Assembly: GCA_963699235.1 (NCBI GenBank)
Contig: OY969424.1
Location: 1,850,964-1,914,963 of the forward strand
Source of the DNA: an uncultured Chloroflexia bacterium
Lineage (GTDB): Bacteria > Chloroflexota > Limnocylindria > QHBO01
Reading direction: 5' to 3'
DNA length: 64,000 nt
Numbering within the stretch: position 1 is the stretch's first letter; the number at the start of each line of letters is the position of its first letter. Positions 39,061-58,618 of this stretch are shown here, piece after piece. The notes beneath the pieces are model-generated. The model was not told where the DNA came from. It saw only the letters and a program-made list of their open reading frames with translations, and ran no database searches. The position numbers were made by a program, and so were the translations under genes.

Positions 39061-39062
39061 GC

Positions 39063-41918: not shown

Positions 41919-41946
41919 CCCACTCGGATCAGGTTCGCGTCCAACT

Positions 41947-41979: not shown

Positions 41980-42171
41980 GCTGAGTGGGACCTCTGTACC
42001 GGTACCGGTGGTGCGCCGACGCACCGCCAATTTGAGGGGACAGCCGACGTAAGCGCACCAGACCGCACCACACCGGCCATTGCCCTCACCGAACCCGCTT
42101 CCCAAAAGTACTTCCCCTCGACTACCCTTGCGCGGTTCTAATCTGCCGATCGTCCTCGGCGACCAATCACC

Positions 42172-42178
42172 AAGGAGG
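42172..42178 (+). promoter_or_regulatory. Shine-Dalgarno sequence AAGGAGG, 5 nt upstream of the GTG at 42184
   Basis: Read directly: CACCAAGGAGGGGAACGTG. Confidence 0.6.
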
Positions 42179-42183
42179 GGAAC

Positions 42184-42903
42184 GTGTCTGCCCACCATCG
42201 TGCTCATCGGCGCGGCCTGCGCTGGGGCATTGCCGGAATCCTTGCCTCGATGCTCATGCTCACGGCATCCTCCGTGGTCCTGGGCGCCGGCGTCCCGACG
42301 GATCCCGACCCGGATCTCGTCTGTCCCGACGGCCACGGCTTTGGCCTGGTCACCAAGTACGTCACCACGGTCAACACGCCGGCGGATTCCAAGGACTGGT
42401 GGGTGAGCGTCGAGTTCGAGGTTGCCGACGACGGCGACCATCACGCCAACTGCGAGATCAGCCTGGGAAGCTACGAGCTGCCGGGGCCGGACTTCTCGCT
42501 CCCACAGACGCTCTTCGGCGGTGAGACCGGCGTCTTCGGCGTCGGGACCCACACCCTGACCGTCCCTCTGCCCCTCGAGCTCAACCAGCCGGGCTGCTTT
42601 GCGCAGTACGACTTCGTCTTCGGTCCGCTGATCGAGGAGCTGACCCTGCCCGACCACTACGGCGACCGGCAGATCCGTGCCCGGATCGTCGGAACCGAGG
42701 CCTGCCCGGCCGACCCGGTCGTCCCGCCGGATCCGCCGAAGCCTGATGGTGGCACCCAGGGTGGCACCGGACTGCCGAACACGGCCATGGCACCCACCTC
42801 GTCCAGCGACCTGGCCCCCACGTTCGCCCTGCTCCTGGTGGCGTCTCTCTCCACCATGGGTATGCTGAACGTACGAGCGGTCCGCGCTCGCCGGGCCCGC
42901 TGA
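42184..42903 (+). CDS. Secreted protein with a C-terminal sortase-type sorting signal (LPNTA, hydrophobic helix, Arg-rich tail)
   Basis: N-terminal signal/TM GLRWGIAGILASMLMLTASSVVLGAG. The C-terminus is GGTGLPNTAMAPTSSSDLAPTFALLLVASLSTMGMLNVRAVRARRAR. Confidence 0.65.
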   Translation: MSAHHRAHRRGLRWGIAGILASMLMLTASSVVLGAGVPTDPDPDLVCPDGHGFGLVTKYVTTVNTPADSKDWWVSVEFEVADDGDHHANCEISLGSYELPGPDFSLPQTLFGGETGVFGVGTHTLTVPLPLELNQPGCFAQYDFVFGPLIEELTLPDHYGDRQIRARIVGTEACPADPVVPPDPPKPDGGTQGGTGLPNTAMAPTSSSDLAPTFALLLVASLSTMGMLNVRAVRARRAR

Positions 42904-42963
42904 CAGCCGGGAGACCGTCAGCCACCGACAGGGAGTTGCCCGCTCGCCCGCGGGCAGGGTGTT

Positions 42964-43509
42964 ATGAGATTCGTCGAGACGCCGCTGCGCGGCGTGATGG
43001 TGGTCGAGCTCGAGCCACGTGAGGACGAGCGCGGGTTCTTTGCCCGAGCCTTCGACGTGAAGGAGTTCACGGAGGCCGGCCTGAACCCGCGAGTGGTGCA
43101 GTCCAACCTCTCGCACAACCTCCGCCGAGGGACGGTGCGCGGGTTCCACTACCAGCGCCCGCCACACGCCGAGGCGAAGCACATCCGCTGCATCCGCGGC
43201 GCCGCCTTCATGGCAGTGGTCGACATCCGGCCCGACAGTCCGACTCACCTCCAGCACACCGCGGTCGAGCTCCGGGCCGGCGACCGCCGCAGCCTCTACG
43301 TGCCGGAGGGGTGCGCGCCGGGCCTCCAGACCCTGGAGGACGTGACCGAGCTCCTCTACAACGTGAGCGAGTTCTACACCCCGGAGGCGGAGGGCGGCCT
43401 GCGCTACGACGACCCGGCGCTCGGGATCGCCTGGCCCCTGCCCGTCTCCGCCATCTCCGAGAAGGACGCCGCCTGGCCGTACCTTGAGCTGACCGCGGCC
43501 CGGTCATGA
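42964..43509 (+). CDS. NDP-4-keto-6-deoxy-sugar 3,5-epimerase (RmlC-like cupin)
   Basis: GVMVVELEPREDERGFFARAF, VRGFHYQ, KHIRCIRGAAFMAVVDIR, SLYVPEGCAPGLQTL and YDDPALGIAWP. Confidence 0.85.
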   Translation: MRFVETPLRGVMVVELEPREDERGFFARAFDVKEFTEAGLNPRVVQSNLSHNLRRGTVRGFHYQRPPHAEAKHIRCIRGAAFMAVVDIRPDSPTHLQHTAVELRAGDRRSLYVPEGCAPGLQTLEDVTELLYNVSEFYTPEAEGGLRYDDPALGIAWPLPVSAISEKDAAWPYLELTAARS

Positions 43510-44805
43510 TCATTGTCGACCGAGCGCTGGCCGAGCGCGCGGCGGCGGGACGCCCGGTCCAGGTCGGGATGGTCGGTGCCGGGGCCATGGGCCGCGGCAT
43601 CGCGCGCCAGATGTTCCGCGCCTTCCCGGGGCTGCGCCTCGCCGCGGTCGCCAACCGGACGACGGAAAACGCCGTCCGGGCCTATGCCGAAGCAAAGCAG
43701 CCCGATGTCGACCACGTCGGGTCGGCCGCCGAGCTGGAGGCGGCGATCGGCGCGGGCCGGTTCGCGGTCACCGACGACCCGTTCGTGATCACCGAGGCGC
43801 CGTCTATCGAGGCGGTGGTCGAGGTCACCGGCACGGTCGAGCACGCGACCCATGTCGTCGAGTCGGCCATCGCCCACGGCAAGCATGTCATCCTCATGAA
43901 CGCTGAGCTGGACGGCACGATCGGGCCGATCCTGAAAGCGCAGGCTGATGCGGCCGGGGTCATCCTGACCGCCTGCGACGGGGACCAGCCGGGGGTCGAG
44001 GCCAACCTCTATCGGTTCGTGCAGGGCATCGGCCTGCGGCCGCTGGTGTGCGGGAACATCAAGGGCTTGCAGGATCCGTATCGGACTCCCACCACCCAGG
44101 CGGGCTGGGCGGAGCAGTGGGGCCTCGGGGTCAAGATGGTGACGAGCTTCGCCGACGGGACGAAGGTCTCGTTCGAGCAGGCGATCGTGGCCAACGGAAC
44201 CGGGATGCGGGCCCCGAAACGGGGCCTGTACGCCTGGGACCACACCGGCCACGTGGACGAGCTGACGACCCGCTATGACCTGGACGAGCTGCTGCGGCTG
44301 GGCGGGATCGTGGACTACGTCGTCGGCGCCCAGCCGGCGCCCGGCATCTACGTGATCGGCCACCCACGACGATCCGCTCGAGCAGCACTACATGAAGCTC
44401 TACAAGCGCGGTGACGGCCCGCTCTACTCGTTCTACACCCCGCAGCACCTCTGCCACTTCGAGGTGCCCACCTCGGTGGCGCGGGCCGTTCTCCTCAACG
44501 ACCCGGTCCTGGCCCCGCTCGGCGGCCCGGTGGTGGAGGTGGTGGCCACCGCCAAGCGGGATCTGGCGGCCGGCGAGGAGCTCGACGGCATCGGCGGCTA
44601 CACGACCTATGGGCAGTGCGACAACGCCGACGTCGTGCAGGACGAGACCCTCCTGCCGATGGGCATCTCGGAGGGCTGCGCCGTGGTGCGCCCGGTCGCC
44701 AGGGACGCGGTTCTCACCTACGCCGATGTCGAGCTGCCCCCGGGCCGTCGGGTTGACCAGCTGCGCATCGAGCAGGCCGAGCGCTTCGCGATGGCACCCC
44801 GATGA
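43506..44805 (+). pseudogene. NAD-binding (homoserine-dehydrogenase-like) oxidoreductase with a C-terminal SAF domain, split by a +1 frameshift at the CCC run 44363-44365 (or a sequencing indel)
   Basis: Track ORFs 43506-44414 and 44392-44805 are two halves of one protein. The first half ends ...VDYVVGAQPAPGIYVIGH. In the next frame it continues HDDPLEQHYMKLYKRGDGPLYSFYTPQHLCHFEVP. Deleting one C from CACCCACGAC restores a single ~432-aa frame. Confidence 0.65.
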
Positions 44806-45884
44806 CCGCCCGGTTCTCGATCTTCATCCCCATCTACAACGACGGCCGCTGGCTGGCCGGCGCCATCGAGAGCGTCCTGGCCCAGACCCACGGCGAATGG
44901 GAGCTCGTGATCGGCGACAACGCCTCCACCGAACCGATCGAGCCGGTCGTCCGCCAGTTCCACGATCCCCGGGTCCGGTACCACCGCTGGGACACGCACG
45001 TGCCCATCGACGAGAACTTCAACCGAACCGCGCTCCTGACCCGCCACGAGTGGGTCCAGTTCCTCGGCGCCGATGACCGGCTCCATCCCGGCTGCCTGGC
45101 CCGGATGGCCGCCGCGATCGACGAGTGGAGCTCACCCACCCGGTTGGCGATGGTGGTCACCGCCTGCCGCCGAGTGGACCCCGACGGCCGCTCGGCGGAC
45201 CACATCTGGTACGGGACCCGGCCGCGATGGCAGGTTCTGGGCGGAACCTACGACTCGGCGACCTGGTTCGGCATCCACCTCCAGGACGGGAACCCGCCGT
45301 GGAACGTGGGGTCGGTCGCCGTGGCCCAGGACGTCTTGTCGGAGAGCGGCGGATTCTTCCGGCCCGAGGTCGGGCTGTCGGCCGACGTCGAGCTCTCCCT
45401 CCGAGCCGCGGCCTATGGATCGGTCGCGTACATCGATGAGCCGCTCCTCGACTTCATGGTCCGTCCCGACGCCGACAACTCGATGCGGTTGTGGATGAAC
45501 CGATCTCGGAACGACCAGCGGACGCCGATCGAGGTCGCCCTCCTGGCCGGGCTCCGCATCCACCGCCACCAGCGCGAGGTATCGGCTGCGGAGGAGCGCC
45601 GGCTCCGAGGCGTGATCGCCCGGTCGCACCTGCAGCGAGCGGCCCAGCACCGCGTGCTGGAAGGGGGTCGCGGACGACGTGGCGCGGCGCGTGACATCCG
45701 CACTGCCATCCGCTGGAGCCCCCGCGCGGTCCTCAGCCCGTACCACGCCCTCTATGCCTTGGCCGCGCTCGTCGCCCCGCGACGGCTCCTCGACGCCGCC
45801 AGGCGACGCCTGTCCCCGGATCAGGAGGTCCTGGAGCCCGTCGCCGGAGTGGGCGGATCGGCTCCGGAAAGCACCGCCCGGTAG
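44802..45884 (+). CDS. Glycosyltransferase family 2
   Basis: FSIFIPIYNDGRWLAGAIESVLAQTHGEWELVIGDNAST and FLGADD (DxD). The start forms an ATGA overlap with the upstream gene. Confidence 0.85.
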   Translation: MTARFSIFIPIYNDGRWLAGAIESVLAQTHGEWELVIGDNASTEPIEPVVRQFHDPRVRYHRWDTHVPIDENFNRTALLTRHEWVQFLGADDRLHPGCLARMAAAIDEWSSPTRLAMVVTACRRVDPDGRSADHIWYGTRPRWQVLGGTYDSATWFGIHLQDGNPPWNVGSVAVAQDVLSESGGFFRPEVGLSADVELSLRAAAYGSVAYIDEPLLDFMVRPDADNSMRLWMNRSRNDQRTPIEVALLAGLRIHRHQREVSAAEERRLRGVIARSHLQRAAQHRVLEGGRGRRGAARDIRTAIRWSPRAVLSPYHALYALAALVAPRRLLDAARRRLSPDQEVLEPVAGVGGSAPESTAR

Positions 45885-46990
45885 ATCGCCATCACCCGGG
45901 ACGCGCATTCGTCCCAGCTCGGCAGTCGTGGGGGCTCGTGGGCATCAGCCGGAGCCTCGAGCTGCTGCAGCAGCGCTCGGGCGATCTCCTCGCTGTCGGC
46001 CGACTGCTCGACCGCCACCGCCTGGGGCAGGTCCGCCACCTCGGCCAGCGCGGTCCCACGGCTGACCACGATCCGGCAGCCGAGCGCCAGGGCCTCGTGA
46101 ATTGCGAGCCCCTGCGACTCGTAGTCGCTCAGCAGGGCGACGACCTGGGCGCGAGCCAGCAGGCCTGACACGTCGGCCCGGGATGCGGAGCGAATCTCGA
46201 CCGCGTGGTCCACTCCACAGGCGATGGCCCGCTCACGGAGCGCCTTCTGGTAGGGACCGCTGCCAAGGACGAGGATCCGGGCATCGGAGTGGCGCTCGCG
46301 GACAAGCGGAAGCGCCTCGATCAACCGGTGGTGGCCCTTGTATCGCTCGAGGCGACCGACCGACAGAATCAGGCCCGGCTCCCGGGTCAGCGGCTCCGCG
46401 CGCTCGGGCTCCGGGATGTCCGACCCATTCGGGATGACGGCGAACCGGCCGCCGGGCAGACCCAGCCGCCGCGAGAACTCGGTGGCCTCGAAGCGCGAGA
46501 CGGCGATCAGGCGGTCGGCACCGGCCAGCTGCCGCCGAAGGGCGCGCAGCTGCACGGGTCGAATCGCACGCCGAATCCGCGACGAGTGGCCGCCGGAGTG
46601 AAGGGTGACGACGTACGGGATGCGCGCCCGCCTGGCCGCGGCCATGGCCAGCGGTGGCACGAACGTGTGGTAGCCCTGGCAATGGACGAGATCGGCAGTC
46701 GTGGACCGAACCCGGCGATAGATCTCCGGGGCGATGTAGAGGTCACTGCCTGGCGGTCCGGCCGGGACCCGGACGACGCGCACGCCGTCCACCACCTCCC
46801 GTGGCGGGAGGCGGCGGTCGAGGTCCGTGGTCAGGACCTGGACTTCGAAGGCGCCGTCGGCGGCGACCCGGCGTGAGAGCTCGCGGGTGTGCGTTTCCAC
46901 CCCACCGGTGTACGGCGGAAATCGGTGCGCGACCATGAGCACCCGGATGGGACGGTCCTGCGCCTCGGCTGCCCGGCCGGGACGAGTCAT
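45821..46990 (-). CDS. Glycosyltransferase family 4
   Basis: From the ATG at 46990 (ATGA overlap with the upstream GT2): IRVLMVAHRFPPYTGGVETH, GRLERYKGHHRLIEA and ESQGLAIHEALALGCRIV (E-x7-E). The remainder of the 591-aa track ORF is an out-of-frame read of the GT2 gene. Confidence 0.85.
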   Translation of the reverse strand: MTRPGRAAEAQDRPIRVLMVAHRFPPYTGGVETHTRELSRRVAADGAFEVQVLTTDLDRRLPPREVVDGVRVVRVPAGPPGSDLYIAPEIYRRVRSTTADLVHCQGYHTFVPPLAMAAARRARIPYVVTLHSGGHSSRIRRAIRPVQLRALRRQLAGADRLIAVSRFEATEFSRRLGLPGGRFAVIPNGSDIPEPERAEPLTREPGLILSVGRLERYKGHHRLIEALPLVRERHSDARILVLGSGPYQKALRERAIACGVDHAVEIRSASRADVSGLLARAQVVALLSDYESQGLAIHEALALGCRIVVSRGTALAEVADLPQAVAVEQSADSEEIARALLQQLEAPADAHEPPRLPSWDECASRVMAIYRAVLSGADPPTPATGSRTS

Positions 46991-47967
46991 TGGGCCGGGC
47001 CGGGCCGGGGCTCGCGCTCTGGTTCCGCGGACCGCTCTCCCGCCCCGAGCCGGCCGGCGATGTAGCCCGCCACCGTGAACCCGAGGCCCGCCGCGATCGC
47101 GCCGGCCTTCCGAGCGTCCTCCAGTCCGGCACCGCGCAGGGCGGTCTCGAGATTGCGAGCCATGCCGCGCGGGAGGGTCACGGCCGCATGGCGGCGCTCC
47201 GAGGCAAGGCCCGAATCGGCGCCCACAAGCGTGGTGATCCGCGCCTTCGACCGGCCTTCGGCCAGGCAGCGGGCGCGGAAGTAGTCCCACGTGGCCCGCT
47301 CGGCCCGTACCCGGTGGCTGACGTTCGCCGCCGGCTGGTAGAGGAGGACACGGTCCGGCATGGCGCGACGGAGCCGGATACAGAACTCGGTCTCCTCCCC
47401 GCCGACCGGCCGGCGGCCGACGCGCCCGATGCTGGTGTCGAACCCGCCGGCGGCGGCAAAGGCCTCGCGCCGGAAGGACATGTTGCAGCCCAGCGGGTTC
47501 CTGATCTGGGCAAGGTGGGTTGGCAGACCCCGATAGCTGCAGCCGACGACCCAGTCGAACTCCTCCGGGAACCACTCGGGGCGCCCGGTGTCCCACGCCG
47601 GGGTCGCCGAGCCGCCGACGCCGACCACCCGTCGATCGCGGTAGGGATCAGCCAGGGCGGCCAGCCACCCCGGGCTCGCGACCGCGTCGTCATCGAGGAA
47701 GGCGACGATGGGACCGGTGGAAGCGGCCACGCCGGCGTTGCGCGCATCCGACAGGCCCTGGCGGCCGGTGTTCGGGACGACCCGAACCGCCGAGTGGGCG
47801 GCGGAAACGCGGGCGCCGAGGGCGTCGTTGTGGTCGGTGACCACGATCGTTTCCATCGGCGGCAGGGTCTGGTCTCGAACGGAGTCGAGGGCGCGGACGA
47901 GATCGTCCCACCGGTCGTCGGCGAAGGCGCAGATGACGACCGAGAACTCGGCCCGCGGCGTGCTCAC
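46987..47967 (-). CDS. Glycosyltransferase family 2
   Basis: FSVVICAFADDRWDDLVRALDSVRDQT, GLSDARNAG, AFLDDDA (DxD) and GGEETEFCIRL. Confidence 0.85.
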   Translation of the reverse strand: MSTPRAEFSVVICAFADDRWDDLVRALDSVRDQTLPPMETIVVTDHNDALGARVSAAHSAVRVVPNTGRQGLSDARNAGVAASTGPIVAFLDDDAVASPGWLAALADPYRDRRVVGVGGSATPAWDTGRPEWFPEEFDWVVGCSYRGLPTHLAQIRNPLGCNMSFRREAFAAAGGFDTSIGRVGRRPVGGEETEFCIRLRRAMPDRVLLYQPAANVSHRVRAERATWDYFRARCLAEGRSKARITTLVGADSGLASERRHAAVTLPRGMARNLETALRGAGLEDARKAGAIAAGLGFTVAGYIAGRLGAGERSAEPEREPRPGPAQ

Positions 47968-49286
47968 CCGAATGCGGCCTCGATCTGGTCGGCCTCGTCC
48001 ACGGCGGGCGCGAGGTGCGCCCCACCGGGCGGCGGTCGCATCGCGACCCAGAGCATCGGCAGCATGAACACCGCCTGCAGCATGAGAACCCCGAACCGGG
48101 CCCAGGCGAATCCCTCGAGGCCCCCCAGCTCAGCGCCGATGACCGCGGCCCCCAGCTCCATGACGAGGGTGATGACGCCAACCACCGCGGCGCGCGAGAC
48201 GGAGCCACGCACCCGGTGAATGGCGATCCAGTGGTCCTTGACCAGGACAGGCAGCGCGCTGACCGCCAGGATGACGACGGTCGGGTAGGCGTTGGCATAT
48301 GACTGGCCGAAGAACCCGATGACCCATGGGCCGAAGACCAGGAGCACGAGTGTCCCGAAGACAGTGGCGAGCGCACAGAAGCCAAGCGTGAAGCGGATCT
48401 GCCGCCACAGGGTGTCCGGGGCGCGGGCGCCGACGATGTAGAGGGTGAACGTCGCCTCCTTGCCGAGCAGGAGGATGAGGTTGGAGATGAGGAACGCGAT
48501 GTAGAACGCCGCGTTCTCCTCGGCCGAGATCGCGATCGTGACCAGGAGCGGCAGGAGCCAGACCGATGCCGACCGCGACAGGTTGACGACGTGGTGGGCA
48601 AGGGCGTCGGGGGCCATGGCCCGCAGGCGATGCCACATCAGGGGCCGGATGTCGCCGGTCAGGCGGGCGTTGTGGACCAGGACGATCACGACCCCCAGGG
48701 ACAGGAGCATGCCGGCGAACCAGGCGAGGTAGATGCCCATCCCGTCGTCCCAGATGGTCGCCGCCGCGAGGACGGCGAGAACGGGCAGGCGTCCGATGCC
48801 GAAGATCGTGTTTCGGATCAGCTGCATGAGCCGCTGGTTGACCGAGACCAGCACCTGGTCGAGGACCGATGTCAGTGCCGTGACCCCGACACCCAGGGCG
48901 AAGACGACGATGGCCAGCGGCTGGGCCAGCGGGGCGAGGTCCTCGGACAGCAGCGGGGCCAGCACGGCAAAGACCACGCCGAGCACGAGCCCGGTGATCG
49001 CCGCGGCCAGGGTGGCGGTCACCGCGAGGGACGCGACCCGCTCCTCCTTGTGCAGGATGCCGGCGAGCGCGGTGCCCAGGCCGAGCATGGCCACCTGGGA
49101 GAGGAACAGCATCGACGACACGGCGGCGCCGGCCAGGCCGATGGCCTGGACCGAGTAGCCCTGAGCCGCGATCCACCAGAAGATGAAGCCGGTCCCGCTC
49201 GTGAGCAGGCTGGCGGCGAACAGACCGGTGGTCGCGCCGATGGTCCACCGGAATGGCGCGAGGCGAGCCGGCCAGGCGAGGTTCAT
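47964..49286 (-). CDS. Polysaccharide biosynthesis/flippase protein (MOP superfamily), copy 3
   Basis: From the ATG at 49286 (MNLAWPARLAPFRW...): about 12-14 TM helices across 440 aa. The start of the next gene overlaps its stop (ATGA type). Confidence 0.7.
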   Translation of the reverse strand: MNLAWPARLAPFRWTIGATTGLFAASLLTSGTGFIFWWIAAQGYSVQAIGLAGAAVSSMLFLSQVAMLGLGTALAGILHKEERVASLAVTATLAAAITGLVLGVVFAVLAPLLSEDLAPLAQPLAIVVFALGVGVTALTSVLDQVLVSVNQRLMQLIRNTIFGIGRLPVLAVLAAATIWDDGMGIYLAWFAGMLLSLGVVIVLVHNARLTGDIRPLMWHRLRAMAPDALAHHVVNLSRSASVWLLPLLVTIAISAEENAAFYIAFLISNLILLLGKEATFTLYIVGARAPDTLWRQIRFTLGFCALATVFGTLVLLVFGPWVIGFFGQSYANAYPTVVILAVSALPVLVKDHWIAIHRVRGSVSRAAVVGVITLVMELGAAVIGAELGGLEGFAWARFGVLMLQAVFMLPMLWVAMRPPPGGAHLAPAVDEADQIEAAFG

Positions 49287-49359
49287 GCGGGGACGGCCAC
49301 GTCGGGCCGGCTTGCGCGACGCGGCGGGACGTCTGCGCGCGCGGCCTCGTCGGCCCGGG

Positions 49360-50298
49360 TCATGCGACGCTGCGGGCGTCCGGGCGGGGCGTGGCAGCCG
49401 GCAACCAGCGGGAGAGATCGCGTCCCAGCAGCTCGCCGAGGCGCTGGACTTCGGGCGCAAGCTCGGTCGTGAGCCGTTCGCGGACCGAGCGGTCCAGCGG
49501 CGGCCGCTCGTAGGGGCGGCTGTTGGCGGACAGCACCTTCGCCCGCAGCTGATGGGCCAGCGGGGCGCGGCGGAGGAGGGGAATGAAGCGGGCCAGCGGG
49601 GCGGGCGGGCGTACGACGAACGACTGCAGGGAGGAGTTGACCGGGCGCTTGGACTCGTTCACGCGTTCGAAGGATGGCCGAAAACCGTCGTCCACGCCAA
49701 GGAACCGCACGACCTCGAGGTAGGCGGCTTCCGGATCGCGGATGAAGTCGTCGAACAGGAGGATCTTCACCCGATCAGGGCCGAACTCGGCCAGGTAACG
49801 CTCGACCTGGTCGGCGAACCGGACCGTGTCGCGATAGAACAGGGCCTCGGGGCGGCGCGTTGGGCCGAGGCGTCGTCCCGCACGTCGATCGGGCTCGGCC
49901 GCCAGGGCATCCTCGAAGTCGTCCAGCTCTTCGCCGCCGTAGAAGACGAGCTCGCCGTGGAGCGAGTACATCACGTCCACCGGGTTCCGCAGCATGATGA
50001 TGATCTGGGCATCTGGCGAGAACTCGTGGATCTCGCGCGGCGCATCGGTCGAGTACAGGTACCAGGTGCTCGCCTCGCCGACGCGCTGACCTGGCTTCGC
50101 CGGGCGGAAGAGCCGCAGGTAGTCCGCCTCGGTCAGGCGGCCGTGGATGGTGGCCAGGTCGGCGCCGAAGTACATCGGCTCCTTGTGCTCGGGCATGAAC
50201 ACGTCCGGGTGGCGCCGAAGGTACTCGTACATCGCCGTCGTTCCACAGCGTGGGGCGCCGACGATGAAGAAATCGGGCCGCGGCTCGATCCCACCCAT
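49360..50298 (-). CDS. Sulfotransferase (Sulfotransfer_1-like, heparan-sulfate-sulfotransferase-type fold)
   Basis: From the ATG at 50298: PDFFIVGAPRCGTTAMYEYLRRHPDVFMPEHKEPMYF (5'-PSB loop) and IIIMLRNPVDVMYSLH (3'-PB). It is unrelated in sequence to the sulfotransferase at 38146-39060. Confidence 0.85.
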   Translation of the reverse strand: MGGIEPRPDFFIVGAPRCGTTAMYEYLRRHPDVFMPEHKEPMYFGADLATIHGRLTEADYLRLFRPAKPGQRVGEASTWYLYSTDAPREIHEFSPDAQIIIMLRNPVDVMYSLHGELVFYGGEELDDFEDALAAEPDRRAGRRLGPTRRPEALFYRDTVRFADQVERYLAEFGPDRVKILLFDDFIRDPEAAYLEVVRFLGVDDGFRPSFERVNESKRPVNSSLQSFVVRPPAPLARFIPLLRRAPLAHQLRAKVLSANSRPYERPPLDRSVRERLTTELAPEVQRLGELLGRDLSRWLPAATPRPDARSVA

Positions 50299-51302
50299 CA
50301 ATCCACCTCCGCGAACAGGATGCGAGATCCGTGCGCCTCGAAGCGGACGGGGATGCTGCTCAAGTCCGGCAGGGCGTCGAGAACCCGGTTCCGGGCTTCG
50401 CCTTCGGCCAGGAACATGAGGAAGCCGCCGCCGCCGGCGCCGCACAGCTTGCCGCCTATGGCTCCCGCGCCCATTCCGGAGGCATACCACGCATCGATCT
50501 CCTCGGTGGAGATGGCGCTTGCGAGGCCGCGCTTGAGCTGCCAGCCAGCATCGAGGATGGCTCCGAAGCGCGCGAAGTCCGGCTCCGGCGTAGCCATGAG
50601 CGCCTGCAACTCGTAGGCCTGGTCACGCATCCGGTCCAGCACGTCTCGGTGCTCCGGCGTTCGCTCCCGCTGCTCGACCAGCACCGAGCTGGCGCGGCGC
50701 TGGTGCCCGCTCCAGAGCATGAGCAGCCGGTCGAACAGGTGATCGACCGACCCGTTCACCCCGCGGTGCGGATGTACGGTCACGTCGCCACCCGGGCGGA
50801 AGGCAAACAGGTTGAGGCCGCCGAAGGCGGCGGCGTACTGGTCCTGCTTCCCGACAGGCTGGGCGAGCATCTCGATCTCGACCGTCGACGCCTCATCGGC
50901 CAGTTGAGAGGGAGTGACACGTTCGCCCTGGAATGTGTGGAGGGCGTTGAGCAGGCCAACGGCGAAGGCGCTCGAGCCTCCCAGGCCCGAGGAGTCGGGA
51001 AGGTCGCTGACCACGCTGACGTAGATCGGTGGCTCGATCTCCAGCAGCCGGAGGCACTCGCGGGCAACGTCGTTGCGGATGGCATCGATGGAGCTGACCG
51101 ACTCGCTGACCGAGTAGTTGAGTCGGACCTTCTCGTCGAAGACCTCGCCGTGGCGCTTGACGGTCACGTAGACGTACTTGTCGATGGTGGTACTGAACAC
51201 CGCGCCGTGGTCGACGTCGTAGTGGGCGGACAGGTCGGTCCCACCCCCCGCGAAGCTGACCCGGAGCGGAGTCCGGCTCATGACGATCCCCCGCCCGCTC
51301 AT
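50298..51302 (-). CDS. hddA: GHMP-family sugar kinase, D-glycero-alpha-D-manno-heptose-7-phosphate kinase type
   Basis: SRTPLRVSFAGGGTD, the GHMP motif LPDSSGLGGSSAFAVG, VGKQDQYAAAFGG and GGKLCGAGGGGFLMF. There is an alternative start at 51281. Confidence 0.8.
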   Translation of the reverse strand: MSGRGIVMSRTPLRVSFAGGGTDLSAHYDVDHGAVFSTTIDKYVYVTVKRHGEVFDEKVRLNYSVSESVSSIDAIRNDVARECLRLLEIEPPIYVSVVSDLPDSSGLGGSSAFAVGLLNALHTFQGERVTPSQLADEASTVEIEMLAQPVGKQDQYAAAFGGLNLFAFRPGGDVTVHPHRGVNGSVDHLFDRLLMLWSGHQRRASSVLVEQRERTPEHRDVLDRMRDQAYELQALMATPEPDFARFGAILDAGWQLKRGLASAISTEEIDAWYASGMGAGAIGGKLCGAGGGGFLMFLAEGEARNRVLDALPDLSSIPVRFEAHGSRILFAEVD

Positions 51303-52351
51303 CAGGCGGTCATCCCCTCACCGACGCGCCATCGGAGCGCTTCGTCGAGCGTGCCCTCCTCGATGAGCCTGGCGAGACGCTTGAGTCGGGTGTATCGGTC
51401 GCTGGTGAAGGCCTCGTACGTCAGGCCCAGTTGGCGGAAGGTCGAGGCCAGCTCGACGGCACCACGCTCGGCGTTGTGCTCAAAGGTGAAGCCCGGGAAG
51501 GTCCGCCCGAACTTCGCGAAGCTGGTCTGGTAGGTCCGCTGGTCGGCGTCGGGCACGGCCCGGATCTCGAGGGTGGCCTCCGGCACGGCGCGCTGGACAG
51601 CCTGGGCGAGGTCGCGGACCTGCTGGTTGAGCTCGTCGGCACCGACGTTGAACGCCTGGTTGTGGATGGCGTCGGCTGGCGCGTCGAGGGCGGCGAGGAA
51701 GGCCCGCGCCACGTCGTGGACGTGGACGAGCGGGCGCCACGGCGTGCCGTCGCTCATCACCGTGATGGTGCCGTTGGTGACGGCCATCCCGGTGAGGTTG
51801 TTCAAGACGGTGTCGAACCTCATCCGCGGCGAGACGCCGAAGATCGTGCCGTTGCGCAGGAAGATCGGCGAGAAGGTAGGCGTCGCCAGGGTGGCGATGG
51901 CGCGCTCGGCGACGACCTTGGAGCGGGCGTACTCGGTCTGGGGATCGAGTGGCGAGTCCTCATCCACGGCTCCCCCCTCGGCCATCCCGTACATGATGCA
52001 GGAGGAGGAGAACAGGAACCGCTCCACGCCCGCGTCACGGGCCAGCTCGGCGAGGCGGACCGTTGCGTCCACGTTGATGTCCGCCGTCCAGGCCGCGTTC
52101 AGGTTGCCGATCGGGTCGTTGCTGAGCGCTGCGAGGTGGACGACGGCGTCGAAGCCGCGCAGGTCGTCGGCCGTGACGTCACGGACGTCCCGCTCGATCG
52201 ACGGGATGTCGGCAAGCGGCATGAGGTCGCAGCCCCGGAAGAAGTCGACGTCCAGGCCGACCACGTCGTGGCCGGCATCGCGGAAGGCGGGCGCCATGAC
52301 TGCCCCCACGTAGCCGCGATGGCCGGTCATGAGGACCCGGCGGGCGGTCAT
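51302..52351 (-). CDS. NAD-dependent NDP-sugar epimerase/dehydratase (extended SDR)
   Basis: From the ATG at 52351 (ATGA overlap): RVLMTGHRGYVGAVM (a GxxGxxG variant), and YARSK (YxxxK). Confidence 0.85.
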   Translation of the reverse strand: MTARRVLMTGHRGYVGAVMAPAFRDAGHDVVGLDVDFFRGCDLMPLADIPSIERDVRDVTADDLRGFDAVVHLAALSNDPIGNLNAAWTADINVDATVRLAELARDAGVERFLFSSSCIMYGMAEGGAVDEDSPLDPQTEYARSKVVAERAIATLATPTFSPIFLRNGTIFGVSPRMRFDTVLNNLTGMAVTNGTITVMSDGTPWRPLVHVHDVARAFLAALDAPADAIHNQAFNVGADELNQQVRDLAQAVQRAVPEATLEIRAVPDADQRTYQTSFAKFGRTFPGFTFEHNAERGAVELASTFRQLGLTYEAFTSDRYTRLKRLARLIEEGTLDEALRWRVGEGMTA

Positions 52352-53565
52352 CGGGACACCCCCGCCGCCGCGGCGCTCGTCAGCTCGCGAGCGTGGAACA
52401 GGAGGCTGGCCGTGTCGTGGACCGCGCGGTAGGGCGCGCCGGCAGCGAACGCGGCCTGGCCGTCCCGCTCGTCGTCGCCGATGAACGGTGTCCGGCTGAG
52501 GTCGAGCTGAAACTCGTGTTGGGCGTCGAACAGCATCCCCGGGCTGGGCTTGCGACAGGCGCATCCCGCCTCCCAGTCGTGGGGGCAGTGATAGATGGCA
52601 TCGATCTGCCCGCCGGCGTCGGCTGCCTCGCGGACCATGCGCTCGTGGACGGCGGCCAGGTCCGCCTCGGTCATGACCCCGCGGCCGATGCCGGCCTGGT
52701 TCGAGACGACCACCACCCGGTAGCCCGCGTCGTGGAACAGGCGGAGGGCCTCGAGGCTGCCGTCGAGCCAGCGGAAGTCGGACGGGGTCCGCACGTACTC
52801 CGCCTGCGGCGGACGCTCGTTCAGGACGCCGTCGCGATCCAGGATCACGGTGGGCCGACGGGCCAGGAATTCCTCGGTCAGGGGCAGACGGTGCATGGAC
52901 CCGACACTGTAGTAGCGATGCTCGGAAACGTGCGCGCCGAGCCTCCGGTTGGCCGTCAGCCGCGGGTAGAGCGCCTCTTCCACCAGCTCGTCGCCATCGG
53001 GCGGCAGCAGGCTGAGGACCGGCTTGGGCAGGATGGCGTAGCTGATCTCGACGCCGGCCAGGTTCGCCGTGGTCCGGCTCCGGTCGTAGGCCTCGAGGAG
53101 CCCGTCAGGCCCCGTCCGGGTGTTGCTCCGGGAGTAGCCGTCGGAGTTGGCGTAGATGGTGACCATGGCCGGCGCGCCGACCCGCAGGTAGTGATCCCAC
53201 AGCCGCTCCATGTCGAGCGGCCAGTAGATGTCGCAGTACAGCAGCAGGAAGAGCGGGTCGAGGCGGTCCTCGACGACCTGGAGCCGGCGTGCGGTGAGGT
53301 CGTCGGGGTCCGTCACCGAGTAGTCGATCCGGATCCCGAATCGCGAGCCGTCCCCGAAGTGGTCCTGGATTACCTCGGGCAGGTAGCCGAGGAGCATGAG
53401 GACGCGCTCGAAGCCCTGCTCGGCCAGAAGCTCGACCGTGTACTCGAGGAACGGCCGGCCGTGGAACTCGATCATCGGCTTGGGACGGTCGTCGGTCAGC
53501 GGCCGCATGCGCGTGCCTCGACCGCCGGCGAGGATGACCGCCTGCCGGGGGCGCTCAGGGGACAT
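52348..53565 (-). CDS. Bifunctional fusion: sugar-1-phosphate nucleotidyltransferase (HddC-like) plus D,D-heptose-1,7-bisphosphate phosphatase (GmhB, HAD)
   Basis: The N-terminal half has AVILAGGRGTRMRPLTDDRPKPMIEF. The C-terminal half has VILDRDGVLNE (HAD motif I), VVSNQAGIGRG, and the GmhB zinc motif HCPHDWEAGCACRKPSPGML. Confidence 0.8.
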   Translation of the reverse strand: MSPERPRQAVILAGGRGTRMRPLTDDRPKPMIEFHGRPFLEYTVELLAEQGFERVLMLLGYLPEVIQDHFGDGSRFGIRIDYSVTDPDDLTARRLQVVEDRLDPLFLLLYCDIYWPLDMERLWDHYLRVGAPAMVTIYANSDGYSRSNTRTGPDGLLEAYDRSRTTANLAGVEISYAILPKPVLSLLPPDGDELVEEALYPRLTANRRLGAHVSEHRYYSVGSMHRLPLTEEFLARRPTVILDRDGVLNERPPQAEYVRTPSDFRWLDGSLEALRLFHDAGYRVVVVSNQAGIGRGVMTEADLAAVHERMVREAADAGGQIDAIYHCPHDWEAGCACRKPSPGMLFDAQHEFQLDLSRTPFIGDDERDGQAAFAAGAPYRAVHDTASLLFHARELTSAAAAGVSR

Positions 53566-53571
53566 GGCGGC

Positions 53572-54342
53572 CTAGCTGGTGGTGGTCGCGGCGGTCTGGT
53601 GGACGGCGAGCCTGGCGGTGATCATGTCCGCGACGGCGGAATGCGCCGTTTCCACCAGCCCGTACTCCCCGTGCCGGGTGGGCAGCCAGACGGCGACGTC
53701 GAGGAGGGCCAGGGCGGCTCCACCGTCGAAGCCGAGCAGCCCCATGGTGTGCAGGCCGGAGGACTTGGCCAGCTCGATCGCGCGCAGGATGTTGGGCGAG
53801 TTCCCGCTGGCGGAGATGACGATCAGGACGTCCCCCTCACGCGCCAGGTTCTCCAGCTGGCCGGCGAACACCCGGTCGTATCCCTCGTCGTTGGCCAGGG
53901 CGGTGAGCCAGGGGATGTTGTCGGTCAGGTTCATCACACGCATCGGCGGCTGGTCGGCGCGACGGGTTGCCTTGGCCAGATCGTTGACCCAGTGGGCCGC
54001 GGTGGCGGAGCTTCCCCCATTGCCGGCGATGAAGATCGTCGCGCCCCGGAGCCGGGCGGCTTCCAGCACCGTCGCCATCAGGTCGACGGCCTGTCGATCG
54101 AGTGTCGCCAGCAGCAGGTTCAGACGCTCAACATAGTCGCTCGCCCAGAGGCCGGACGATCCGTTTCCGTTCTCGCCGTTGTGAGCATCGGTCCCATCGG
54201 CGATGACATAGGCGAAACCGTTCGTCTCGCCGATCGCGGCGGTACCGGCGACGGCGAGCGGCGGGTACGCGTTGCCATCGGTCTCGCCGTTGCCGTCGCT
54301 CCCGTTGTGGCCGTTGCCGTTCGTGAGCGGGCTGGCGACCAT
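53572..54342 (-). CDS. gmhA: Phosphoheptose isomerase (SIS domain, 53572-54135) with an Asn/Gly/Asp-rich N-terminal extension; its frame stays open upstream into the GT2 remnant
   Basis: IFIAGNGGSSATAAHWVNDL and VISASGNSPNILRAIE are GmhA signatures. The nearest in-frame ATG is at 54342 (MVASPLTNGNGHNGSDGNGETDGN...). No stop separates it from the GT2 C-terminal segment (track ORF to 54570). Confidence 0.7.
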   Translation of the reverse strand: MVASPLTNGNGHNGSDGNGETDGNAYPPLAVAGTAAIGETNGFAYVIADGTDAHNGENGNGSSGLWASDYVERLNLLLATLDRQAVDLMATVLEAARLRGATIFIAGNGGSSATAAHWVNDLAKATRRADQPPMRVMNLTDNIPWLTALANDEGYDRVFAGQLENLAREGDVLIVISASGNSPNILRAIELAKSSGLHTMGLLGFDGGAALALLDVAVWLPTRHGEYGLVETAHSAVADMITARLAVHQTAATTTS

Positions 54343-54429
54343 CGCCACCGGGTGCAGCTCGGTCCGGGCACGACCGTTGCTCGCGGCGGCAGCGGCGGCC
54401 GTAACCACGGCGGCCTCCGACAGCGGCCG

Positions 54430-55100
54430 ACGTCGCTCGCGGAAGATCGCCCGCAGTACCCGCCAGCCGTCGGGAATGGTTCGGAGGCGACCGATGCCCA
54501 TGACCCGGCGGTCCTCGAAGCTGGGGACCTCCTGGACACGGAGGCCGGCGCGCAGGGCCCGGATGTTCATCTCGGTCTCGATCTCGAAGCCATCGCCATT
54601 CAGGGCGAGGACCGGCAGGTGACGGCGCCAGAAGGCGTTGTAGCCGTAGCACAGGTCGGTGTAGCGCCCGCCGTAGAAGCATGCGGACGAGGCGGACGAA
54701 GGTGGCGTTGCCCAGGCGGCGGTGGATGGGCATGTCGCTGGTGCCGGCGCCGTGAAGGAAGCGGGACCCCTTGGCGAAGTCTGCCCCGGCCAGGAGCGCG
54801 TTGACGAACATCGGGATCTCGGCGGGATCGGTCGAGCCGTCGGCGTCGAGCATCACGATGATGTCGCCGGTGGCGGCCGCGAATCCGGAGCGCAGGGCCG
54901 CGCCCTTGCCGGTGCCCTCCTGCTGAACGATGCGGATCGTCGGAATCAGCTCACGGGCGACTTCGGCGGTGCGATCCACGGAGGCGCCGTCGACCAGGAT
55001 GACCTCGTCCACGCTGGCTCGGCACCCGCGGCAGGACGTGGGGGAGGTTCAGCTCTTCGTTGAGAGCGGGAATGATGACGCTGACCGTAACGCGTGACAT
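54430..55100 (-). pseudogene. GT2 (polyprenol-phosphate-sugar-synthase-like) gene carrying two frameshifts; the last segment runs on into gmhA
   Basis: Segment 1 starts at the ATG at 55100 (SD AAGGTGG): MSRVTVSVIIPALNEELNLPHVLPRVPS. Segment 2 begins after a shift near 55013-55016: VDEVILVDGASVDRTAEVA...IIVMLDADGSTDP...FVRLVRML. Segment 3 begins after a shift near 54676-54682: YGGRYTDLCYGYNAFWRRHLP...GFEIETEMNIRALRAGLRVQEVPSFEDRR. The three segments lie in three different frames. Confidence 0.6.
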
Positions 55101-55396
55101 GCTCACCACCTTGGCTCAATCGGTGCAGCACGCTTCCGGGACGGTCTCGGCCGTCGATCCGAGGATGCCGGACCGACGCACCAGCGGTGCGTGAAACAAC
55201 CTACGGGATGATTCATAGGATAACCGGGCGACTGATTTGGGCGAAATCCGGGGAAAAATGAGGACCTCGTCAGCCTAGGAGCAAAGTCCTAGCGGGTCAA
55301 GGCATTCTCCGCCCAATGGCACCGAACGCGTTGCCACATGGCACCATTCGCCCGTGAATCGCCCCCGAAGGGGCCGCCAAAGGTCCCCCCGAAGCC

Positions 55397-55933
55397 CTAG
55401 GACGTGGGTTTCGAGTACCCCCGCTCCTCCAACGCCTGGAGCACCTTGAGCGCGCTCTCCTCCGGCGTTTCCCGGCCATCGGTGTGGCACACGACCTCTG
55501 GCTCAAGGGGCGGCTCGTAGGGGTCGCTGACCCCGGTGAAGCCGGTGATCTCGCCGGCCAGGGCCTTCTTGTAGAGCCCCTTCACGTCCCGCTCGGCGAG
55601 GACGGCGATGGGTGCCTCGACGTAGACCTCGACGAAGCTGCCGATGGTGGCCCGGACTTCGTCGCGGACCTCGCGATAGGGGCTGATCGCCGCAGCGATG
55701 GCGATGACGTCGTTCCGGGTCAGGACCTCGCACACCCAGCCGATGCGCCGGATGTTCGTGTCGCGGTCCTCCTTCGAGAACCCGAGGCCCTTCGACAGGT
55801 GAGTCCGGACGACGTCGCCGTCGAGGACCTCGACCTTGTGGCCCCGTCGCCGCAGCTCGGCCTCGACGAGGTCCGCGATCGTCGTCTTGCCCGCTCCTGA
55901 CAGGCCGGTGAACCAGACCGTGCAGCCGGTCAT
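55397..55933 (-). CDS. cysC: Adenylylsulfate (APS) kinase
   Basis: From the ATG at 55933 (ATGA overlap with sat): [15 protein letters not shown] (P-loop), [21 protein letters not shown] and [11 protein letters not shown]. Confidence 0.9.
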
Positions 55934-57106
55934 CGGGTCACCGCCGCCGAGCGGTAGGCGTCGATCAGGACCTGGGCCACCTCGGGTCGGCTGAACTCCG
56001 GTGGCGGCATCTCGCCGGCGGTGAGCATTTCGCGCACCCTCGTGCCCGACAGGATGAGCCGCTCCGTGTCCGGATGGGGGCAGGTCTTGGAGGACGCCAT
56101 CCCCTCGCAGGCACGGCACCAGAACGAGTGCTCGAAGAACAGCGGCATGATGCCGAGCTCATCGGGCCCGAACTCATCGAAGATCAGGTGGGCGTCGTAC
56201 GAGCCGTAGAAGCTCCCGACCCCGGCGTGGTCTCGACCGACGATGAAGTGGGTGCAGCCATAGTTCTTGCGGGCGATGGCATGGAAGACGGCCTCCCGCG
56301 GCCCGCCGTAGCGCATCGCGGCGGGGTAGACGGCGAGGAGGGTCCGGTCGGCTGGGTAGTAGTTCGCGAGCAGGGCCTCGTACGCCTGCATCCGAACTTC
56401 CGGCGGCGTGTCGTCGGACTTCGTCTCGCCCACGAGCGGATGGATGAGCAGGCCGTCCACGATCTCGAGGGCGGCCTTGGTCAGGTACTCGTGCGCCCGG
56501 TGGATCGGGTTTCGCGTCTGGAAGCCGACGACCCGGCGCCACTCGCGCTCGGCGATCTGGGCACGGGTCTGGGTCGGGGTCAGCCGACGGGCGGCGAACG
56601 GAGGATCGAGCGGCAGCTCGAGGACGTGGACGTCGCCGCCGAGGTGGATCTCCCCGGCATCCCGAATCCGGGCGACGGCCGGGTGGCTGTCGTCGGTCGT
56701 CCGGAATACCTGCTCGGCCTCGGACTTCCTTGTCATACGCATAGACGTCGGCCAGGTCGAGGATGCCCACGGTCCGGCCGGTTTCATCGGTGAGCGCCAC
56801 CGACGAACCGATCTGCAGCCGATCCGCTTCCTCGCGGGTCGTCGAGAGGGTCACCGGGATGGACCACGGCAGCCCGGAGGCGAGGCGCATGTCCTTCACC
56901 ACCGATGCGTAGTCGTCCTGGGTCAGGAACCCGGTGAGCGGGCTGAAGGCGCCGGTGCCGATGAGCTCGAGGTCCGAGAGCTCGACCGCGCCGAGGCGCA
57001 GCTGGGGCATGGATGGGACCCGATCGAGGGCGGCGTCGCGGTCGGCTCCGACCAGGACGCGGTCGATGAGCGAGCCACCGTGGGGGGGAATGAGGGCGTG
57101 CGTCAA
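55930..57106 (-). pseudogene. sat: Sulfate adenylyltransferase (ATP sulfurylase), split by one frameshift near 56722-56737 (or a sequencing indel)
   Basis: The N-terminal part lies in the frame of track ORF 56174-57385, with a likely TTG start at 57106: LTHALIPPHGGSLIDRVL...[10 protein letters not shown]. The C-terminal part lies in the frame of ORF 55930-56787: [17 protein letters not shown]...[15 protein letters not shown]...[12 protein letters not shown]. Together they make a normal ~390-aa Sat. Confidence 0.75.
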
Positions 57107-57257
57107 TGAAGGCCTCGCTGGCGGAAAAGTGGCCTGCGATAGTACCCCGCGATTCCTCGGGGCGCGAAAACGGCCGGTGGCGCGTCGGCCGCCGATTGGC
57201 GCGCTGGCTAGAATCGGGGGGACGAATTCGCGAGCGCCGCTCCCCGGAGGAACCCCG

Positions 57258-58265
57258 ATGGTCGGTCCAGCCTCGCCCGCGCCGTCGGCCGCGCTCGCGG
57301 GGACGGACGCTGAGGCGTTTGCCACCCGACTGCGCACCGCGCGGTCGGTCACCGCGTTCTGCCACGAGCAGCCCGACGGCGACACGCTCGGGGCCGCGGT
57401 GGCGGTGGCGCTGATCGCCGCCCGCCTGGGGGTGGCCTCGGAGGTCGTCTCCGTCGATGCCGTGCCGCCGGCCTACGAGTTCCTCGCCGGATCGGGCGCG
57501 ATCCGCCGCGCGCCCGGCCTCTCACCCGACCTGGCGGTGGTGTGCGACGCCGCCACCCTCGAGCGGGTCGGCTCGGTCCTGGTGGCGGAGGCGGCGTGGT
57601 TCTCGCAGGCGACGGTGGTGAACATCGACCACCACGCCACGAACGCTCGGTTCGGGGCGATCAACATCGTCGACGAGCACGCGGCGGCCACCTGCCAGGT
57701 CGTCGCCGACCTCCTGCCGCTCACCGGCGTGGCCCTGGACCGCGACATCGCCAGTGCGCTGCTGGCCGGGCTCGTCCGTGACAGCCACGGGTTCTCGACG
57801 AGCGCCACCTCGCCCCGGACGCTGCGCGCGGCGGCCGAGGCGGTCGAGGCCGGGGCACCGATCGACGCCATCTCGCGAGCGACCCTGCTCGAGCTCCCGG
57901 TGCCGACCATGCGGCTCTGGGCCCGACTGCTGGCGACGATGGGAACCGCCTACGACGACCAGCTCATCTACGCCGTCCTGACCGGGGATGCGCTGGCCGA
58001 AACCCATACCGAGCAGCACGACGCGGACGGCCTGGTCGAATTCCTCGCTCGGGGCCGCGGGGTCCGGGTGGCGATCCTGCTGCGCGACCTCGGTCCCGTC
58101 ACCCGGGTCAGCCTGCGAACCGGCGACGGCGTCGATGCCGCGGCCATCGCGGGTTCCTTCGCCGGTGGCGGCCACCGGCGACGCGCGGGCTGCACCGTTC
58201 CGGCGCCGGTGGAGCGGGCGGTTCCGCTCGTGCTCGAGGCCTGCCGGCCCTACCTCGAGGGGTGA
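57258..58265 (+). CDS. nrnA: DHH/DHHA1 phosphoesterase, NrnA-type (oligoribonuclease / pAp phosphatase)
   Basis: The ATG at 57258 has GGAGG 7 nt upstream. Motifs: CHEQPDGDTLGAA (DHH motifs I-II), NIDHH, and GGGHRRRAG (DHHA1 GGGH). Confidence 0.8.
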   Translation: MVGPASPAPSAALAGTDAEAFATRLRTARSVTAFCHEQPDGDTLGAAVAVALIAARLGVASEVVSVDAVPPAYEFLAGSGAIRRAPGLSPDLAVVCDAATLERVGSVLVAEAAWFSQATVVNIDHHATNARFGAINIVDEHAAATCQVVADLLPLTGVALDRDIASALLAGLVRDSHGFSTSATSPRTLRAAAEAVEAGAPIDAISRATLLELPVPTMRLWARLLATMGTAYDDQLIYAVLTGDALAETHTEQHDADGLVEFLARGRGVRVAILLRDLGPVTRVSLRTGDGVDAAAIAGSFAGGGHRRRAGCTVPAPVERAVPLVLEACRPYLEG

Positions 58266-58618
58266 GCGGCGGCGCGGTGGCGCCGGAGCACCTTCGCGAC
58301 CTCGCCGACGAGCGCAGAGCGGGCGCGCATCGGTCCCAGTCCGGACGAACGGGCATCGGCATGGGCCTCGAGGTCGGTGTGGGGCCCGAACAGGATGATG
58401 TCAGGGCGCGGATCGGACGCGGCATCACGCCACGCGGCGATCGCCTCGGCCCATCCCGGCCCTCGTTCGGTCCAGTCCACCACGAGGAGGTCGGCTCGCT
58501 CGCCGGCGTCGAGCGCCGCCGGCGACTCGATGCGGGTCACCGTTCCGCCCTCGACCACGGCGACGCCCTCGATGCGTGAGGCGGTGATGAGGTCGGACGC
58601 GAGGACGAGGATCCGCAC
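58250..58618 (-). CDS. Hypothetical protein, receiver(CheY)-like fold suggested
   Basis: MRILVLASD...ADLLVVDW... loosely follows the receiver-domain beta-alpha pattern, but the acidic pocket is incomplete. The 3' end overlaps the nrnA 3' end by 16 nt. Confidence 0.45.
   Translation of the reverse strand: MRILVLASDLITASRIEGVAVVEGGTVTRIESPAALDAGERADLLVVDWTERGPGWAEAIAAWRDAASDPRPDIILFGPHTDLEAHADARSSGLGPMRARSALVGEVAKVLRRHRAAAHPSR

Follow-up and report, generated by a model that had tools for sequence, protein, structure and literature searches.

We analysed a 64,000-nucleotide stretch of DNA (the window; G000:C1:1850964-1914963, 70% GC) from a soil or freshwater bacterium of the Chloroflexota class Limnocylindria, whose genome, G000, is assembled as one contig of 2.09 Mb. 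The window carries sat and cysC, the genes for a sulfate adenylyltransferase (ATP sulfurylase) of the homo-oligomeric Sat type and for an adenylyl-sulfate (APS) kinase, which together would make 3′-phosphoadenosine 5′-phosphosulfate (PAPS), and our subject is the use to which this PAPS is put. An earlier interpretation of the same DNA, made without database searches (the sequence-only reading), had described sat and cysC as coupled by an ATGA overlap, and as lying upstream of, and co-oriented with, a string of genes that reaches down to 45821 and contains a sulfotransferase. The overlap is there, bases 55933-55930 being common to the sat stop and the cysC start, and the layout is correct (Table 1). 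Because the gene upstream of sat, which encodes a DHH/DHHA1 protein (DHH2, 57258-58265), is on the plus strand, sat is the head of the minus-strand run. The sequence-only reading also had this run continue into a glycan operon. The same-strand adjacency holds, but a 297-nt non-coding gap follows cysC, and the continuation into the operon therefore amounts to that adjacency; co-transcription of sat-cysC with the glycan genes is something we infer. The fold of the gap is unexceptional (z = -1.0), an Rfam search of the whole window including the gap returned no match, and a promoter scan found no sigma-70 consensus sites, also in the divergent region 57107..57257 between sat and DHH2, which starts 151 nt from sat.

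The products of both genes carry the signatures of their families. The Sat translation matches PUA_2 (E = 1.6e-40) and the ATP-sulfurylase domain (4-211, E = 4.2e-96), spread over two reading frames as described below; the domain order is that of the family (PF01747 + PF14306), with the PUA-like N-domain preceding the catalytic domain, and the catalytic motifs QTRNPxHRAH and GRDHAG are both found. Its intact orthologue in the sister species G009 (386 aa, 82% identical) scores 552.9 bits against NF003166 (cut-off 387). CysC scores 281.5 bits against NCBIfam NF002059 (cut-off 244), with the P-loop GLSGAGKTT intact.

The gene pair is part of a larger genomic island. Five further species of the genus have DNA matching 10.1-16.0 kb of the window and, 1-5 kb beyond it at most, DNA matching 58.3/58.8-60.4 kb; the 42 kb at 16.0-58.3 kb are therefore an insertion peculiar to G000 and G009. 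The stop codon of DHH2 (58265) lies at the right edge of the insertion. Two contigs of G009 are colinear with the window, C138 over 39.2-54.45 kb and C298 over 55.4-64 kb. Besides sat, cysC and the genes listed in Table 1, the island encodes three more glycosyltransferases (GTs), an ATP-grasp enzyme, a GNAT protein, AsnB, an RmlC-like epimerase, a DRL/SAF oxidoreductase, Wzz, Wzx and Wzy. Sat-cysC and two sulfotransferase genes thus stand together with Wzx, Wzy, Wzz and GTs in one polysaccharide locus. No tRNA genes and no direct repeats at the flanks point to a mobile island, the only repeats being the CWB2 modules of two paralogous surface proteins, and the island looks like an ordinary hypervariable glycan locus. 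A second insertion relative to the same five species, of about 10 kb, occupies window positions from about -270 to 10100 (genome 1850690-1861060), with lower GC (0.63-0.67) and a sparse coding signal.

The reductive branch of sulfate assimilation is absent. The sequence-only reading had seen no assimilation genes near sat-cysC and had suggested looking elsewhere in the genome for a separate assimilatory cys regulon; the absence extends genome-wide, and no such regulon was found. No frame of the one-contig genome matches PF01507 (CysH/CysD) or PF01077 (sirohaem sulfite reductase), and a tblastn search of the genome that took CysH, Sir and TauE sequences of other loci as seeds returned nothing. 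PF01507, which matched in 14 of 14 control genomes, gave no match above the cut-off in any of 31 relatives, which represent 13 genera, and no match at all in 19 Sat-positive genomes of the class. Since neither an APS/PAPS reductase nor a sulfite reductase is encoded, PAPS is barred from cysteine synthesis in this organism. The genome holds one Sat and one CysC. That the pair might be the only one and belong to the cysteine regulon of relatives was the objection raised in the sequence-only reading to its own proposal; the pair is indeed the sole one, yet there is no cysteine regulon here or in the relatives. Two genes for SulP-family transporters lie elsewhere in the genome, so sulfate could enter the cell. 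These results agree with a survey of freshwater Chloroflexi metagenome-assembled genomes (MAGs), Limnocylindria included, most of which lack the key genes of assimilatory sulfate reduction and probably rely on reduced sulfur (PMC6169038).

Enzymes that would consume PAPS are, in turn, encoded close by. The whole genome has two sulfotransferase matches, ST1 and ST2, both inside the island. ST1, of the carbohydrate-sulfotransferase type, keeps the PAPS-binding loops GAPRCGTT and MLRNPVDVMYS; its PDB matches are 3RNL, an uncharacterised bacterial sulfotransferase (1e-45), and then heparan sulfate 3-O-sulfotransferases. The ST1 gene overlaps the stop codon of hddA, which belongs to a set of heptose genes. 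ST2 keeps the loops GTGRSGST and HLVRDSRG and has no match among solved structures.

The co-occurrence of these genes extends to other genomes. Among the 31 relatives, only G000 and G009 have Sat, ST1, a true CysC and a further DHH/DHHA1 gene. Class-wide, Sat occurs in 18 of 301 genomes and 11 of 57 genera. In each of the other 17 Sat-positive genomes the flanks of Sat show CysC as the next gene, and a DHH gene 53-58% identical to DHH2 stands beside Sat in 15 of the 16 informative ones, mostly divergent and at 150-300 bp. Six of the fetched flanks have sulfotransferases at no more than 10 kb from Sat, and in four fetched genomes the module is next to pgl/opcA genes, the same chromosomal site as in the window. 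Matches to Sulfotransfer_3 were found in 18 of 19 Sat-positive genomes versus 2 of 20 Sat-negative ones (Fisher p = 5.8e-8). The one clear exception to the link between Sat and sulfotransferases is G043, a Sat-negative genome of the same family (96% complete) with eight Sulfotransfer_3 matches and no Sat-type sulfurylase, which may use another source of PAPS.

As the sequence-only reading had recommended, we placed Sat phylogenetically, using a tree with 80 homologues from other genomes whose gene neighbours were labelled. The window Sat falls in a 23-member clade made up entirely of Chloroflexota (98% support), in which only two members have an adjacent cysH. In the Bacillota, Actinomycetota and many other Sat clades, cysH, sulfite reductase or TauE mostly lie alongside. 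The sisters of the window Sat are L041 and L042 (95% support), and its closest kin share the ST-DHH-Sat-CysC module. In L042 (genome G136) the order is ST, DHH (divergent), Sat, CysC, a phosphodiesterase-like gene, GT4, Wzz and Wzx; in L086, another Chloroflexota MAG, CysC and Sat are followed by HddA- and GmhA-like genes. Given this Chloroflexota clade, we reject a horizontal gain of Sat from a different phylum. L042 (G136:C33, DASRYM010000033.1) bears the NCBI label 'Zixiibacteriota', which is probably a mislabel: the contig has 71% GC and a Limnocylindria pgl locus, and the genome collection places G136 in the window's own family. In many Chloroflexota and some other phyla a gene of about 1.3 kb, of the alkaline-phosphatase superfamily (Phosphodiest-like), is found between or beside Sat and CysC (L043, L045, L052, L057, L063, L064, L085, L088, L104, L112 and others); it follows CysC in L042/G136, G162 and G127.

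It could still be argued that sat-cysC serves assimilatory sulfate reduction through reductases that our searches miss. A methanogen is known to run the pathway with atypical enzymes (PMC10322725), and many of the fetched Sat homologues from other phyla (55-66% identical) adjoin cysH. We consider this very improbable. In addition to the missing PF01507 and PF01077 matches, in the genome and, for PF01507, in every Sat-positive genome of the class, only 6% of the genomes in the class have Sat, a distribution that ill fits a role in core sulfur assimilation, and Sat is tightly linked to sulfotransferases. Moreover, assimilation of the APS-reductase type needs no APS kinase.

The lack of a reductive branch, the co-occurrence with sulfotransferases and the Sat phylogeny all support the proposal of the sequence-only reading that PAPS is made as a sulfuryl donor for glycans and not for cysteine. 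Our interpretation is that sat-cysC probably makes PAPS for the sulfation of a cell-surface glycan, with the enzyme activities and the acceptor predicted from the genes and their context. The molecule sulfated with PAPS might instead be a lipid, peptide or small metabolite, the neighbourhood of glycan genes being incidental. Consistent with this alternative, the core common to the genomes is only DHH2-Sat-CysC: the genes after cysC vary among the genomes of the class, so the link to heptose genes is specific to this locus, and it is DHH2-Sat-CysC that is the conserved unit. ST2 resembles no solved structure, and many related Chloroflexota have the alkaline-phosphatase-superfamily gene, not glycan genes, by Sat and CysC. 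However, both sulfotransferases of the genome are within the glycan island, one of them overlapping hddA; beyond 3RNL, the nearest solved kin of ST1 are carbohydrate sulfotransferases; and in L042/G136 and L086, too, the module stands right beside GT, Wzz, Wzx or heptose genes. A non-glycan acceptor therefore appears unlikely.

Besides the variation of the genes downstream of cysC, several observations weigh against glycan sulfation by this module. The gap that parts cysC from the glycan genes contains one of two terminator-like hairpins, both weak, the other being within sat. The contigs of G009 break exactly at the stretch formed by this gap and the adjacent GT2 gene, and the cysC-GT2 adjacency in G009 is for this reason only inferred. 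DHH2, our candidate for the removal of the by-product of sulfation, falls far under the cut-off of the NrnA equivalog, and two Inositol_P-family genes elsewhere in the genome could be CysQ, acting on the same by-product. To our knowledge, no member of the Limnocylindria has a demonstrated sulfated product. Finally, sat is frameshifted and the adjacent GT2 gene is so twice, which, if real, would leave the module inactive in this strain.

The last point bears on sat directly, as the gene is not a single open frame, which the sequence-only reading had missed. Relative to the G009 orthologue, a 1-nt (C) insertion near 56733 splits sat over two frames joined at about 56725-56735, the N-terminal PUA-like part running from 57106 to about 56735 and the catalytic part being ORF 56787-55930. 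Positions 1-122 of PUA_2 are found in one frame, and positions 118-158 with the ATP-sulfurylase domain in the other. In the DNA alignment the window reads 'GAAGTCCGAGG' and the intact G009 gene 'GATGT-CGAAG', that is, there is one extra C in the window. The GT2 gene after cysC changes frame near 55019 and at 54676/7. These shifts might reflect a decaying module, with sat a pseudogene and no PAPS made: there are three frame changes within 2.4 kb (about 56730, 55019 and 54676), and the G009 assembly breaks in the same stretch, which would fit a variable or unstable region. To put these changes in context, we scanned for frame switches with a codon model trained on the genome and a 7-state Viterbi segmentation, counting same-strand switches at which the old frame is not closed by a stop codon. 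Genome-wide, G000 has about 187 such switches, or about 1 per 11 kb, whereas loci of three relatives, 64 kb in all, have none. The number within the window, 5, matches the genome-wide rate. Frame switches in the window are placed at 3163/4, 5098/9, 44356/7, 54676/7, about 55019 and 56725/6. Where a relative provides a reference sequence, the shifts are single C/G insertions in G000 in three cases out of three, one of which sits 600 kb off, outside the window, in a conserved region. Third-position GC is about 0.9 on either side of each shift. Despite being one contig, G000 is only 88.9% complete, against 91-97% for relatives in many contigs, and split genes are also seen in other few-contig assemblies of the genus. 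The clustering of the three shifts, for which local decay was considered as a cause, is not significant, because about one such cluster is expected per genome at the genome-wide rate.

From the genome-wide rate, the nature of the insertions, the low completeness and the split genes elsewhere, we conclude that the sat frameshift is probably a consensus error of the long-read assembly and not a real inactivation; decay of the module is correspondingly improbable. The G000 assembly probably carries systematic insertion errors, with about a tenth of its genes miscalled, and gene calls in this one-contig assembly, sat included, need correction before functional claims are made. One of the two SulP transporter genes (G000:C1:1373796-1374894, minus strand) is present in two overlapping pieces, another probable indel. 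At 58634-59734 of the window (minus strand) the coding signal is interrupted: four short pieces, spread over two frames, are separated by non-coding sequence, and there is no Pfam match; the G009 counterpart is only 50-65% identical, and the gene may be damaged by further indels. In several relatives (G014:C15:18018-19013, G017:C91:51796-53151 and others) read-through alignments show one to three in-frame TGA/TAG codons in conserved housekeeping genes.

Transfer of the sulfuryl group from PAPS leaves 3′-phosphoadenosine 5′-phosphate (pAp), and DHH2 is a candidate for the enzyme that removes it. The protein has DHH and DHHA1 domains and keeps the motifs DHH (NIDHHATN) and GGGH (AGGGHRRRAG). Its top NCBIfam match is NrnA (bifunctional oligoribonuclease/PAP phosphatase), at 78.5 bits and below the cut-off of 350; DHH2 is NrnA-like but not an NrnA equivalog. 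The best PDB matches are 4LS9, a 'DHH family protein' (5e-32) which we take to be the Mycobacterium smegmatis homologue MSMEG_2630, and then chains named NrnA/Rv2837c. MSMEG_2630, the NrnA homologue of M. smegmatis, has been described as bifunctional (PMC4081065). A housekeeping DHH gene common to all relatives lies at position 1300531 of G000, and its product is 45% identical to DHH2; DHH2 is thus a second copy, present only alongside Sat. In a tree of these proteins the 17 Sat-adjacent ones form one clade (99% support), with 19 housekeeping copies on the other side.

Removal of pAp is the best reading of DHH2 because of its linkage to Sat, its separate clade, its likeness to NrnA and two precedents, and the activity, a candidate one drawn from this context, is likely. 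The first precedent is a Fimbriimonadia MAG with the order CysQ-family phosphatase, ST, Sat, CysC, ST, where a pAp phosphatase of a canonical family therefore travels with Sat-CysC. The second comes from a methanogen, Methanothermococcus thermolithotrophicus, where biochemical work has proven that a DHH-family protein, whose gene adjoins those for ATP sulfurylase and APS kinase, is a PAP phosphatase (PMC10322725). This enzyme, MtPAPP, is like DHH2 a DHH/DHHA1 protein encoded next to the genes for sulfate activation, but its system feeds assimilatory reduction (PMC10322725), whereas DHH2 is linked to sulfotransferases and not to a reductase. MtPAPP is also without sequence similarity to NrnA, to which DHH2 is clearly similar. 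NrnA of Bacillus subtilis and MSMEG_2630/Rv2837c of mycobacteria, described as bifunctional nanoRNases and pAp phosphatases (PMC4081065, PMC9757072), belong to the same fold family as DHH2 and have the same DHH/GGGH motifs. Those proteins, however, are products of single housekeeping genes, whereas DHH2 is additional to the housekeeping copy and belongs to a clade of its own that is bound to Sat-CysC. This bacterial NrnA-like clade, travelling with Sat-CysC over at least 10 genera, makes a good candidate for a phosphatase dedicated to pAp and is the freshest part of our findings.

Taken together, the genes suggest the following route. Sulfate would enter the cell, possibly by the SulP transporters; Sat would turn it into APS, and CysC would turn APS into PAPS. 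ST1 and ST2 would then move the sulfuryl group onto a heptose-containing glycan or glycoconjugate, or onto its lipid-linked precursor; the GTs of the island would build the glycan, and Wzx, Wzy and Wzz would export and polymerise it. DHH2 would hydrolyse the inhibitory by-product pAp to AMP.

That genes for PAPS synthesis occur within sulfated-glycan clusters is already known, rhizobial nodPQ/nodH and Xanthomonas raxPQ/raxST being older systems of the same kind. More recently, a second copy of cysDNC in a sulfated capsule cluster was called a hallmark of sulfated polysaccharide synthesis, the capsule cluster of Vibrio sp. KMM 8419 having such a copy and three sulfotransferases (PMC11641403). 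The two loci are alike in that the PAPS genes lie in or beside a cluster of the sulfotransferases that consume PAPS, in an accessory, variable locus. They differ in several respects. In the window the ATP sulfurylase is a homo-oligomeric Sat and not a CysDN enzyme; far from being a second copy, it forms part of the sole sulfate-activating system, in a lineage with no assimilatory pathway; and the module includes an NrnA-like DHH candidate pAp phosphatase. The host belongs to the Chloroflexota class Limnocylindria, and here the product is predicted from the genes. Operons of the Bacillus type, cysH-(transporter)-sat-cysC, have the same Sat and CysC families (Sat 57-60% identical), but they also carry cysH, genes for sulfite reductase and sirohaem, and either TauE or CysP, L116 being an example; G000 has none of these.

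The window therefore offers a clean natural case of sat and cysC without any reductive branch. When Limnocylindria MAGs are scored, the two genes should count as markers of sulfation and not as 'partial assimilatory sulfate reduction'. The results also lead us to predict that sulfated glycans occur at the cell surface in this uncultured and little-known class of Chloroflexota, with the two sulfotransferases and the heptose pathway as candidate genes.

Table 1. Features of the sat-cysC locus and of the surrounding island (window coordinates; a dot marks features without strand).
Feature	Position	Strand	Remarks
Strain-specific glycan island, ~42 kb	16000..58300	.	Absent from five other species of the genus
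DHH2, NrnA-like DHH/DHHA1 phosphoesterase, candidate pAp phosphatase	57258..58265	+	Last gene of the island
Divergent intergenic region sat/DHH2, 151 nt	57107..57257	.	Presumed site of both promoters
sat, sulfate adenylyltransferase, homo-oligomeric Sat type	55930..57106	-	Start TTG 57106, stop TGA 55932-55930
ATGA overlap, sat stop and cysC start	55930..55933	-	Read directly from the sequence
cysC, adenylyl-sulfate (APS) kinase, 178 aa	55397..55933	-	Start ATG 55933; PF01583 E = 4.7e-61
Non-coding gap cysC/GT2, 297 nt	55101..55396	.	One weak terminator-like hairpin at 55219-55200
GT2 running via an Asn/Gly-rich linker into a GmhA-like SIS isomerase	53572..55100	-	Two frame changes
Fused HddC-like sugar-1-phosphate nucleotidyltransferase and GmhB-like heptose bisphosphate phosphatase	52348..53565	-	NF006506 169.8 bits (cut-off 178)
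SDR epimerase/dehydratase	51302..52351	-	PF01370 E = 2.9e-43
HddA-like GHMP heptose-7-phosphate kinase	50298..51302	-	NF049969 142.9 bits (under cut-off)
ST1, PAPS-dependent sulfotransferase, carbohydrate-sulfotransferase type	49360..50298	-	PF13469 63.8 bits, PF00685 52.3 bits
Multi-pass membrane protein	47964-49286	-	In the same-strand run
GT2	46987-47967	-	In the same-strand run
GT4	45821-46990	-	Last gene of the same-strand run
ST2, second sulfotransferase	38146..39072	-	PF13469 32.9 bits (cut-off 27)
Two paralogous surface proteins, each with three CWB2 domains	29435-31534 and 31601-33418	-	One with a Big_9/cadherin-like domain

The paralogous surface proteins listed in Table 1 allow a further, more speculative step. 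CWB2 domains of Firmicutes bind an anionic wall polysaccharide. It is conceivable, though we regard it as doubtful, that the island makes a sulfated heptose-containing anionic wall glycopolymer, its charge coming from sulfate and not phosphate, which would be the ligand that keeps the triple-CWB2 proteins on the cell. If so, the system would be a phosphorus-sparing counterpart of the PSII/CWB2 system of Clostridioides (PMC4973711), and DHH2-Sat-CysC would be its dedicated, portable PAPS cycle in a lineage otherwise unable to use sulfate.

The gene at 53572-55100 has a further peculiarity. When its frame shifts are allowed for, the GT2 part passes through an Asn/Gly/Asp-rich linker into the GmhA-like part without a stop codon, and the G009 contig, too, stays open in this frame up to where it ends. 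The gene is either a natural GT2-GmhA fusion or has an internal start.

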